Shown: positions 34,661-35,830 of the stretch, piece by piece
Layout: each line of letters starts with the position of its first letter
How positions within the stretch are numbered: the stretch's first letter is position 1
Assembly: GCA_016432325.1 (NCBI GenBank)
Contig: CP066684.1
Coordinates: 512,001-576,000 of the forward strand
From: Candidatus Aenigmatarchaeota archaeon
GTDB lineage: Archaea; Aenigmatarchaeota; Aenigmatarchaeia; PWEA01; JACQIF01
DNA: 64,000 nt
Direction of reading: 5' to 3'
The notes under the pieces: generated by a model
Told to the model about the DNA's origin: nothing
Seen by the model: only the letters and a program-made list of their open reading frames with translations
Database searches by the model: none
Position numbers and translations under genes: made by a program

Positions 34661-35830
34661 ATGGCAACCAAGGGTATCTCTCCGAAACTTTTTGCGCCCA
34701 TCGCATCCGCTAAACGCGCATGCACGGGAAAGCGTTCCCGGCACATCGGGAACGGTGGTTCCCGAATGAAAACTTTCATGAAAAATCCGCTACCGCACAA
34801 GGGAATCTCGCCTGTAATCGCCTCCATAATCCTCGTCCTGATAGTAATCTCGCTTTCAGGCGCGTATCTCGTCTTCACCGGGCGCCTCGCGAGCACGCAG
34901 ACCGCCGCTGCCGAGCAGCAGGCCTCGCAGGTGCAGAAGCTGACCACCACGATATTCTCCGTCGGCGACATAGCGGGACAAAGCGTGGGAATCGAAAACA
35001 TAGGCTCCGAGGACTTGGAACTCAACTCTTTGCGCGTCACGCTGGATGGCGCGACAGTGAACTACACGATGGACGGGACCATCGAACCAGGACAGAGAGG
35101 GACGCTGACGCTTACGGGTCTGTGGATGTTCGGTCCCGGCGAGCACGCGCTGCGCGTCTCCGGAGCGGCCAAGAGCGATTCGACGACCGTGCGGGTCAAA
35201 CCGAATCCCGATGAACTCGCACTTGACATGAGATTCAACGAAGGCGGTGGAACAACAGCAAGCGACTTTAGCGAAAACAATAACGACGGCACGCTAAAAA
35301 ACGGAACAGTCTGGAGCGCTGGCAAGTTCGGAACGGCCGTGAGTTTCGACGGCACCGACGACTATGTGACTGCCGCGGATAGCGGACTTCCGACAGGCAA
35401 CGGCGCGCTCTCTGTCGAGGCGTGGATAAAGCCGTCTGTACTCAGCGGATACATAGTAAGCTACGGCGACGGCGTCACGAATGGGAAATGGTTCGAGATT
35501 CAAATGCACGGCGTCTACGGACTGGTCGTATCGTTCGGTGGGAGCGGATGTGACATTTTGCCGAGCGGCGTATCCATACCGACTAACCAATGGCGCCACG
35601 TAGTCGCCACGAAACCATCCGGATCGAGCGTCGTCAGCTTTTATGTCGACGGAGCGTTTGTGTCGTCAGCGTCTCCCAGCAGCTGCACGATAAACCTAAC
35701 GCCCGCCGACAACCTAAAGATAGGCAAACACCCGACAACGGGCTCCTATTTCAAGGGACTGGTTGACGAAGTGCGTATCTTCAAGGCCACATATACGCCT
35801 GACCAGCTCTACGTTCTGGAGAGGGTCTGA
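34661..35830 (+). CDS. type IV pilin-like protein with C-terminal LamG domain
   Basis: Class III signal KG|ISPVIASIILVLIVI; LamG motifs (FNEG.G, FDG.DDYV, WRHVV, FKGLVDEVRIF). Confidence 0.9.
   Translation: MATKGISPKLFAPIASAKRACTGKRSRHIGNGGSRMKTFMKNPLPHKGISPVIASIILVLIVISLSGAYLVFTGRLASTQTAAAEQQASQVQKLTTTIFSVGDIAGQSVGIENIGSEDLELNSLRVTLDGATVNYTMDGTIEPGQRGTLTLTGLWMFGPGEHALRVSGAAKSDSTTVRVKPNPDELALDMRFNEGGGTTASDFSENNNDGTLKNGTVWSAGKFGTAVSFDGTDDYVTAADSGLPTGNGALSVEAWIKPSVLSGYIVSYGDGVTNGKWFEIQMHGVYGLVVSFGGSGCDILPSGVSIPTNQWRHVVATKPSGSSVVSFYVDGAFVSSASPSSCTINLTPADNLKIGKHPTTGSYFKGLVDEVRIFKATYTPDQLYVLERV
34669..34812 (+). repeat. palindromic insertion flanked by imperfect 15-bp direct repeats, similar to tRNA intron sequences
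   Basis: CAAGGGTATCTCTCC at 34669 and CAAGGGAATCTCGCC at 34798; interior matches motifs in the Arg and Gln tRNA introns. Confidence 0.7.

Follow-up and report, generated by a model that had tools for sequence, protein, structure and literature searches.

How can a palindromic insert be tolerated within the very first codons of a gene? This question is raised by a type IV pilin-like gene (pilin1) of a Candidatus Aenigmatarchaeota archaeon, a DPANN archaeon whose single-contig genome comprises 874,869 bp (completeness 90%; coding share ~92% by a crude map of open reading frames, ORFs). The gene lies within a stretch of 64,000 nucleotides (the window), which corresponds to genome positions 512001 to 576000. 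Its leader codons contain an insert made up of three hairpin modules, A, B, and C, which recur genome-wide. The best reading, which we regard as probable, is that the insert is a hairpin DNA element resembling a miniature inverted-repeat transposable element (MITE), which is tolerated in the prepilin leader, translated as an oversized leader, and removed by prepilin peptidase.

By this account, a lineage-specific, non-autonomous element would have landed in the first codons of the gene, and pilin1 would have retained its original promoter and leaderless ATG. The ribosome would read through the in-frame, stop-free element, and a very basic leader of 48 residues would replace the 5-residue MATKG. 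The long leader would stay in the cytoplasm, and the single A24 prepilin peptidase would cut after K-G, leaving a normal mature pilin. More generally, the family would persist where the extra sequence is discarded or bypassed: in tRNA introns (through the splicing endonuclease), in a tRNA 5' leader (through RNase P), and in upstream ORFs. The extra peptides encoded by the inserts have a strongly basic character, as would suit an N-region in the cytoplasm.

The interrupted leader of pilin1

The gene and its insert are composed as follows (window coordinates):

34661..35830, plus strand: pilin-like ORF of 389 aa, stop included; class III signal peptide and Laminin_G_3 domain
34670..34684, plus strand: upstream direct-repeat copy, 15 nt, AAGGGTATCTCTCCG, coding for KGISP
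34685..34798, plus strand: composite hairpin insert, 114 nt (38 codons), in frame and without a stop
34688..34720, plus strand: module A hairpin, CTTTTTGCGC...GCGCA; its 3' arm is broken by module C and resumes at 34769-34773 (AAAAC)
34721..34768, plus strand: module C, a double bulged hairpin, TGC-A-CGGGAA..TTCCCG-GCA and CAT-CGGGAAC..GTTCCCG-A-ATG
34773..34798, plus strand: module B (CTTTCATGAAAAATCCGC) and the tail TACCGCAC
34799..34813, plus strand: downstream direct-repeat copy, AAGGGAATCTCGCCT, 129 nt after the upstream copy, with the K-G/I-S-P motif taken as functional
47702..48757, plus strand: uninterrupted paralogue, MRSKG/ISPIIAS, with a TATA box ~30 nt upstream

The ORF reads MATKGISP, 38 added codons, and then KGISPVIASIILVLIVISL; both the sequence and its reading frame bear out a preliminary description of the locus, in which MATKGISP was followed by an insert and by KGISPVIAS, with the cleavage motif recurring 129 nt later. 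The limits of the insert were set by comparison with other copies of the family and by the flanking repeat. The two copies of the repeat differ at three positions, every one a synonymous third position, and the flanking direct-repeat score of pilin1 has a p value of 0.02 relative to 3000 random genomic placements.

Class III leaders are hydrophilic and cytoplasmic and are cut after Gly by prepilin peptidase (PMC4471445). The motif in pilin1, KG/ISPVIASIILVLIVISLSGAYLVF, has the arrangement of such signal peptides, K/R-G/A followed by ~20 hydrophobic residues, and the Laminin_G_3 domain is recognized with an E value of 1.9e-25. The match to Pilin_N (PF07790) is weak, 17.3 bits relative to a cut-off of 25.2, and begins at residue 47, at the second KG. 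The prepilin-peptidase cut is predicted to fall after Gly, between 34804 and 34805, because the paralogue leaders MRSKG/ISP, MRPKG/VSP, and MKDKG/ISP align there and position 1 of the Pilin_N profile falls at the same point. One Peptidase_A24 gene is present in the genome (57 bits, 151095-151436). Of the earlier proposal that prepilin peptidase removes the insert, the position of the motif and the presence of the enzyme fit, while cleavage itself remains a prediction.

Comparison with the paralogue at 47702 and with other homologues, which the preliminary description had recommended, revealed plain leaders of 3-5 residues (MRSKG, MRPKG, MKDKG, MSKG, MHHKG, MPPKG) in seven genomic paralogues, a same-genus homologue, and five metagenomic homologues; therefore, the insert of pilin1 is derived. 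Among 5.8 billion proteins, the nearest homologue other than pilin1 itself shares 47% identity. The same-genus homologue, which may be a paralogue, is 42-43% identical and has the leader MSKG. Contigs from four metagenomic DNA runs (all from one groundwater study, which is possibly the source of the assembly) contain the insert in identical form, with no joint across it; such contigs drop rare variants. The sequencing runs listed as containing the locus are all DNA runs, with no RNA run among them.

A family of hairpin modules

The preliminary description had noted a resemblance of the insert to tRNA introns, and this is substantiated. With the insert as query, nhmmer finds 13 further genomic places at E<=2, several of which are tRNA introns, although the closest relative is an intergenic copy at genome 652722-652816 (E 1.4e-7). 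A profile of module C yields 46 matches at E<=0.01 in the genome and none in either the reversed or the shuffled sequence, so that the similarity is significant relative to shuffled DNA and further copies do exist. A covariance model of module C, the genome scan suggested at the outset, gives 60 strand-matches (~35 loci) in this genome and 16 (~10 loci) in a same-genus genome that is 73% complete; in each of 39 other relatives it gives at most 3 weak matches. The module C copy in pilin1 scores 64.3 bits with this model (E 4.9e-13). A search of Rfam with the insert returned no match, and the sole match in the searched stretch was a chance match to sR14 (E=0.3) downstream of the insert.

The C cores are 45-60 nt long with palindromic ends, TGYACG...CGTRCA, which are found at ~35 loci in the genome relative to 0-2 matches in controls. 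Across 20 aligned copies the family form is TGY-A-CG[stem-loop]CG-RCA followed by YRT-CG[stem-loop]CG-(T/A)-AYR, each hairpin having one bulged base. Pairing is present in 99.2% of the 360 stem cells of this alignment, 11 of the 18 pairs show compensatory changes, and shifting the partner columns lowers pairing to 21-52%. The fold z-scores of the whole insert are modest (-1.2 with flanks, -2.7 without); the signal for structure is the covariation across copies and not the energy of a single copy. G-U pairs occupy just 3 of the 360 stem cells, and copies lie in both orientations, which suggests a constraint on the DNA or on both strands.

The other modules have recurrent forms as well. Unbroken copies of A, as judged by comparison within the family, read CTTTTTGCGC...GCGCAAAAAC. 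Module B has the form CTTTCATGAAAA(A/G)TCCGC; its motif recurs ~10 times, and many copies contain an ATG. Module C lies inside the 3' arm of A both in the pilin1 copy and at genome 652.7k, but within the loop of A in the D-loop intron of tRNA-Gln; because C is nested at differing points of A, C moves by itself. Covariation, copy number, nesting, and flanking repeats together uphold the earlier suggestion of a mini-element that is structured, present in many copies, and evidently mobile.

At three loci (genome 441665-441760, 424117-424212, and 127203-127338) C is split centrally (ACAT^ATGC) by 2-4 more short hairpins, as if cassettes accumulate.

Pilin-like genes with elements in their leaders

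An all-frame scan for K/R-G/A followed by a hydrophobic helix identified 19 pilin-like genes, which become 20 with pilin3, a gene missed by the pattern. In 16 of the 20, an ATG lies 1-5 residues ahead of the motif and there is no element. In the other four, a C-family element lies immediately before the K-G or K-A motif:

pilin1, genome 546661 (the window gene): leader of 48 aa, isoelectric point (pI) 12.0; A(C)B composite
pilin2, genome 703925, minus strand: leader of 33 aa, pI 11.2; C2-type element
pilin3, genome 441796, minus strand: leader of 43-47 aa, pI 11.0; C split by two inner hairpins
pilin4, genome 424111: leader of 36 aa, pI 9.3; C split by two inner hairpins

The cleavage motif of pilin3 is K-A/QTGIEF. 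The mature products predicted for the four genes begin with ISPVIAS, QSQLV, QTGIEF, or VSPLIA. In three of the four genes the Pfam match begins at the motif (Pilin_N at residue 47 of pilin1 and residue 35 of pilin4, DUF7289 at residue 33 of pilin2), and the Pilin_N score of pilin4, 25.6 bits, exceeds the cut-off of 25.2. Apart from the signal peptide the four host proteins are unrelated, and no common build, orientation, or reading frame links their elements; therefore, the four cases represent separate insertions.

All four inserts are in frame with the upstream start, are free of stops, and encode a basic peptide. As a baseline, ~45% of the frames through such elements lack stops; thus, if frame were irrelevant, four in-frame, open inserts would arise with a chance of (1/3 x 0.45)^4, or ~5e-4. 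An out-of-frame insert, which would appear as a pilin gene lacking a nearby start codon, was not found in the all-frame motif scan. The frame and orientation of module C vary among the four genes, and the encoded peptides are unrelated.

Two other accounts of the inserts can be weighed here. In one, pilin1 is a redundant paralogue that has been inactivated or is in decay, and the insert is no more than damage. Redundancy is available, since at least seven paralogues of the pilin1 type are present in the genome. However, the frame of 389 codons is unbroken, nothing is missing from the promoter, cleavage motif, hydrophobic helix, or Laminin_G_3 domain, three unrelated pilin genes also have an in-frame insert, and the contigs of the four metagenome runs of the one study are identical, with no variant. 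Decay is thus very improbable. In the other account, which we judge to be just as far-fetched, the hairpins are not passive selfish DNA but a regulatory leader recruited by the pilin genes, such as a translational or RNA-stability switch or a protein-binding site. The shared position in four pilin genes, the strong conservation of the stems, and the clustering of elements at promoters and gene 5' ends in two genomes would all be expected of a regulator. However, tRNA introns contain these modules too, and copies lie in either orientation; the four inserts have different architectures and reading frames and so provide no common peptide or RNA context; 16 other pilin-like genes do without an element; and conservation without G-U pairs suggests a constraint at the level of DNA.

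Translation start of pilin1

The following features bear on the choice of start codon:

34632..34641, plus strand: TATA-like box of pilin1, CATTTATTTG, in which ATTTAT begins 28 nt before the ATG at 34661
34766 and 34778, plus strand: two in-frame internal ATGs, with the possible leaders MKTFMKNPLPHKG or MKNPLPHKG

Across the genome, TATA-like motifs show a sharp maximum at -30..-26 of start codons (170 relative to ~12 per 5-nt bin), which indicates that most first genes are leaderless; Shine-Dalgarno-like motifs peak at -15..-6. With its TATA-like box at -28, pilin1 is therefore implied to produce a leaderless transcript from the ATG at 34661. Likewise, pilin2 has TTTTAT at -30 of its upstream ATG, and in pilin4 both a Shine-Dalgarno-like motif and an ATG precede the element.

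The alternative is that the same insertion took place but that translation starts at one of the element-borne ATGs, giving a 9-13 residue leader, MK(TFMK)NPLPHKG, with the upstream MATKGISP stretch reduced to a 5' untranslated region (UTR) or a short overlapping reading. Such a leader lies within the known range (PMC4471445), and an ATG is present in many copies of module B. The public gene call also begins at MKTF: the protein entry for pilin1 (354 aa) starts at the ATG at 34766, inside the element, which hides both the MATKGISP stretch and the insertion. However, the TATA-like box stands at the leaderless distance from the first ATG and not from the internal ones, which have neither a TATA at -28 nor a canonical Shine-Dalgarno motif. 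An internal start would also leave unexplained why the insert keeps the reading frame of the old start in each of the four pilin genes, and it fails for pilin3 and pilin4, in which there is no ATG or GTG between the element and the cleavage site. Consequently, we favour a start at 34661 with translation through the element, as predicted from these signals, and consider an internal start unlikely.

Does the insert behave as an mRNA intron?

The preliminary description had also offered an mRNA intron as an alternative, in which the insert is cut out by the tRNA-splicing endonuclease and the exons are ligated, as in cbf5, to give MATKGISPVIAS. The modules are indeed common to tRNA introns, module B is similar to the 3' junction of introns in the T-loop, a splicing endonuclease (genome 849784-850062) and very many non-canonical introns are present, and the loss of 129 nt would restore a consensus leader. 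Splicing by this enzyme can be recognized by a motif, the bulge-helix-bulge (BHB), whose geometry was taken from the canonical introns of the genome and checked on the T-loop intron of tRNA-Gly (where TTCG and TGAA are paired, with an AA bulge after each strand).

Among 22 registers around the direct repeat that would remove 129 nt, no BHB with a 4-bp central helix and flanking helices was found. A relaxed scan, which recovers the true tRNA-Gly introns, gives 0-6 candidates in leader regions (2-6 in the four pilin leaders) relative to a mean of 4.1 per random 200-nt window, and none of the leader candidates excises an element. Module C itself consists of two hairpins with 1-nt bulges and is not a BHB. 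Furthermore, the ORF is not broken by the insert in any of the four pilin genes, and four of four inserts are open and in frame, a feature that splicing does not need (~5e-4); the G-U count (3 of 360 cells) and the two orientations point to a palindrome at the level of DNA. The intron alternative is thus not upheld, and we regard it as improbable.

Copies in tRNA genes

Two of the related tRNA genes lie in the window:

~3965..4275, minus strand: tRNA-Arg(TCT) with three introns; the T-loop intron contains A, B, and C (C at 3998-4051)
~17284..17595, minus strand: tRNA-Gln(CTG), with a D-loop intron in which the loop of an A hairpin encloses C (17501-17558)

The anticodon-side intron of tRNA-Arg(TCT) holds a half-C, CCCGAATGAAA; the three introns that had been named at the outset (Arg T-loop, Gln D-loop, and Arg anticodon-side) are therefore present as described. 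Within tRNA introns the modules are cargo: the splice motif is formed by the intron ends and the exons. In T-loop introns the 3' splice junction is CATGAAAA/T, and TGAA pairs with the TTCG of the T-loop; module B is probably a carried-along copy of this junction. Standard tools detect merely 12-15 tRNAs in the genome because most tRNA genes are interrupted.

A C2-type element is also located outside an intron, between the TATA box and the 5' end of tRNA-Thr(CGT) (genome ~784300-784560, minus strand). At this locus (784.5k), a second copy of 16 nt from the tRNA 5' end lies upstream, and the leader that contains the element would be cut away by RNase P.

Separately, a tyrosine-recombinase gene (783238-783720), one of two tyrosine recombinases in the genome (the other is at 289k), adjoins tRNA-Thr on its downstream side. 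A likeness of the insert to a tRNA pseudogene fragment (TCCGAAA...ATCCGC-TACCGCA-C) was also considered and was dropped, as there is no matching T-stem or acceptor 5' strand.

Insertions at promoters and gene 5' ends

Copies of C are located in multi-intron tRNA genes, a tRNA 5' leader, promoters, 5' UTRs, and intergenic DNA. Flanking direct repeats at p<=0.053 (relative to 3000 random placements) are present at 7 of 25 loci (binomial 2.4e-4), and two more such cases occur in the same-genus genome. At genome 467.5k an exact 18-nt duplication flanks a C element, and the flanking duplications at 750k and 127k are TACGGAGGTG and ATGAAGGGC, respectively. In the same-genus genome, two copies duplicate TATA boxes, GCTTTTATATACG twice (13 nt, exact) and TATTTAAACGCA twice, and one copy duplicates a start codon; thus, insertions strike promoters as well as start codons. 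This preference may reflect either targeting or the scarcity of neutral sites in a genome that is mostly coding.

In five of five protein-gene cases other than the pilins (NAC at 862.6k, 158.7k, 127.3k, 750.0k, and one in the same-genus genome), the element duplicates 9-18 nt of the gene 5' end, and the duplicated upstream start opens an ORF. Each of these ORFs crosses the element without meeting a stop and terminates within 0-6 nt of the real ATG or overlaps it. At NAC (862450-862720, minus strand) the start region is duplicated and the TGA of the upstream ORF lies 4 nt before the ATG; in the same-genus case the sequence is TAAATG. The arrangement looks like a rescue by termination-reinitiation.

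One further gene is interrupted in frame, and its product is predicted to remain uncleaved. In an ATP-grasp_5 (ADP-forming acyl-CoA synthetase-like) gene (genome 581750-582436, minus strand), a 51-nt N-terminal insert consists of a half-C hairpin and an 18-nt duplicated target (MAVLSFED/VLTFED), in which the differences are mostly synonymous. The N-terminus reads MAVLSFED-ARKPLVSGPSK-VLTFEDSQ, and the Pfam domain starts at residue 18.

The original proposal that the element survives where it is later removed therefore holds in part. The four pilin leaders, the tRNA introns, and the tRNA-Thr leader agree with it, while the copies in promoters, 5' UTRs, and the ATP-grasp N-terminus do not; where nothing removes the copy, read-through or coupled upstream ORFs seem to keep the gene expressed. 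A wider view, which is attractive but doubtful, joins these sites. The hairpin family would seed or feed tRNA introns and invade gene 5' ends with target duplications of ~9-18 nt, and it would persist only in self-cleaning niches. Clearing in these niches would be performed by the splicing endonuclease (tRNA introns), RNase P (tRNA leaders), prepilin peptidase (pilin leaders), and termination-reinitiation (upstream ORFs). Duplication of a palindromic target, such as TTCGAA in the T-loop, would supply the helix of a new splice motif, and module B would be the relic of the duplication. If true, this view provides a concrete mechanism for the gain of archaeal tRNA introns. The presence of the same modules in introns, in flank-duplicated intergenic DNA, and in coding leaders points to an ordinary DNA element as the vehicle of intron spread.

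Another observation concerns the surroundings of the 467.5k copy. A 437-bp, one-gene cassette at window 46608-47113 lies in a palindromic module, ...TTACCACCGCAGTGGT..., whose core is repeated at both ends. The same module is the target of the C element with the exact 18-nt duplication at genome 467.5k, and it may be a recombination hot spot.

Evidence against a mobile leader element

Several observations weigh against a mobile element that is translated and cleaved away. The three differences between the KGISP copies of pilin1 are all synonymous (chance ~0.02), which a neutral upstream copy does not predict. The internal ATGs could replace the first ATG of the gene. Published class III leaders contain 6-26 aa (PMC4471445), and the 33-48 aa predicted here exceed all those listed there. 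Flanking duplications, at 9-18 nt, vary in length and are undetectable at most loci. Finally, none of Y1_Tnp, the Cas12f/TnpB zinc ribbon, RVT_1, Cas1, or DDE_Tnp_1 was found in the 90%-complete genome, so that mobility, without a transposase, reverse transcriptase (RVT_1), or Cas1 to account for it, is read from the pattern of copies. The sole match to a Y1 transposase model is sub-threshold (11.6 bits, E 0.15; genome 158624-158788, minus strand); it overlaps a C element and is probably an artefact of translating a palindrome. Casposon-like integration was considered for the 14-18 nt duplications and was dropped since no Cas1 was found.

Comparison with known systems

Of the systems described so far, the nearest analogue is the Rickettsia palindromic elements (RPEs), which lie in frame within protein-coding genes (PMC10969869). 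Like RPEs, the elements of this archaeon are short, palindromic, multi-copy, and non-autonomous, and they lie in frame in ORFs and are predicted to be translated while the host protein is kept (here four pilin genes and ATP-grasp_5). However, RPEs are ~150 bp long, encode a conserved peptide, and occupy surface positions of many metabolic enzymes, whereas the present elements are archaeal, encode no conserved peptide, lie at the extreme N-terminus (four of them in a leader predicted to be cleaved), and occur in tRNA introns as well. With MITEs and repetitive extragenic palindromic (REP)/REPIN sequences they share small size, palindromic structure, a mostly intergenic location, direct repeats in some cases, and nested insertions. 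They differ from these in having no partner transposase that could be found, unusually long and variable duplications (9-18 nt), and a concentration at promoters, start codons, and tRNA genes. Specifically, a Y1 (HUH) partner, as in REP/REPIN with RAYT or in the IS200/IS605-derived PATE, is represented here by nothing beyond the 11.6-bit match.

Among archaeal tRNA introns, sequence-related "transposed" introns have been described in Thermoproteales (PMC4090602), disruption of tRNA genes by integration of mobile elements in Caldiarchaeum (PMC3293823), and multi-intron tRNAs in ARMAN-2 (PMC3239211). As in those cases, related intron sequences are spread across tRNA genes and positions, and non-canonical introns are abundant. 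Unlike them, the modules are also present in intergenic DNA, a tRNA 5' leader, and protein-coding leaders, which indicates a DNA element riding in introns rather than a mobility specific to introns. The BHB intron in the cbf5 pre-mRNA of Crenarchaeota, for which splicing has been demonstrated (PMC2738675), likewise interrupts a protein gene of an archaeon in the manner of an intron, and its removal restores, as it would in pilin1, a consensus protein. In pilin1, however, no BHB fits and the frame stays open through the insert.

Neither RPEs nor the intron transposition of Thermoproteales extends to a refuge in a leader that can be cleaved off. The four pilin cases would, to our knowledge, be the first known example of selfish DNA sheltering inside a cleavable signal peptide. 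A parallel exists in introner elements, which are DNA transposons of algae and fungi that give rise to spliceosomal introns. In both cases, mobile DNA would owe its survival to removal by the host once transcription has taken place, and target-site duplication would form part of the removal signal. However, introners are eukaryotic and depend on the spliceosome, whereas removal here would be by tRNA endonuclease, by RNase P, or, at the protein level, by prepilin peptidase. The pilin cases also predict that archaeal prepilin peptidase processes leaders of 33-48 residues. For annotation, they mean that gene callers mis-start such genes, as in the public call for pilin1, which begins inside the element.

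Other features of the window

The gene directly upstream of pilin1 (33667-34566) encodes a 299-aa protein whose C-terminal part resembles a Fic/DOC domain (HPFxDGNGR). Farther downstream, on the minus strand (57633-61037), the window contains long arrays of 165-nt coding repeats.

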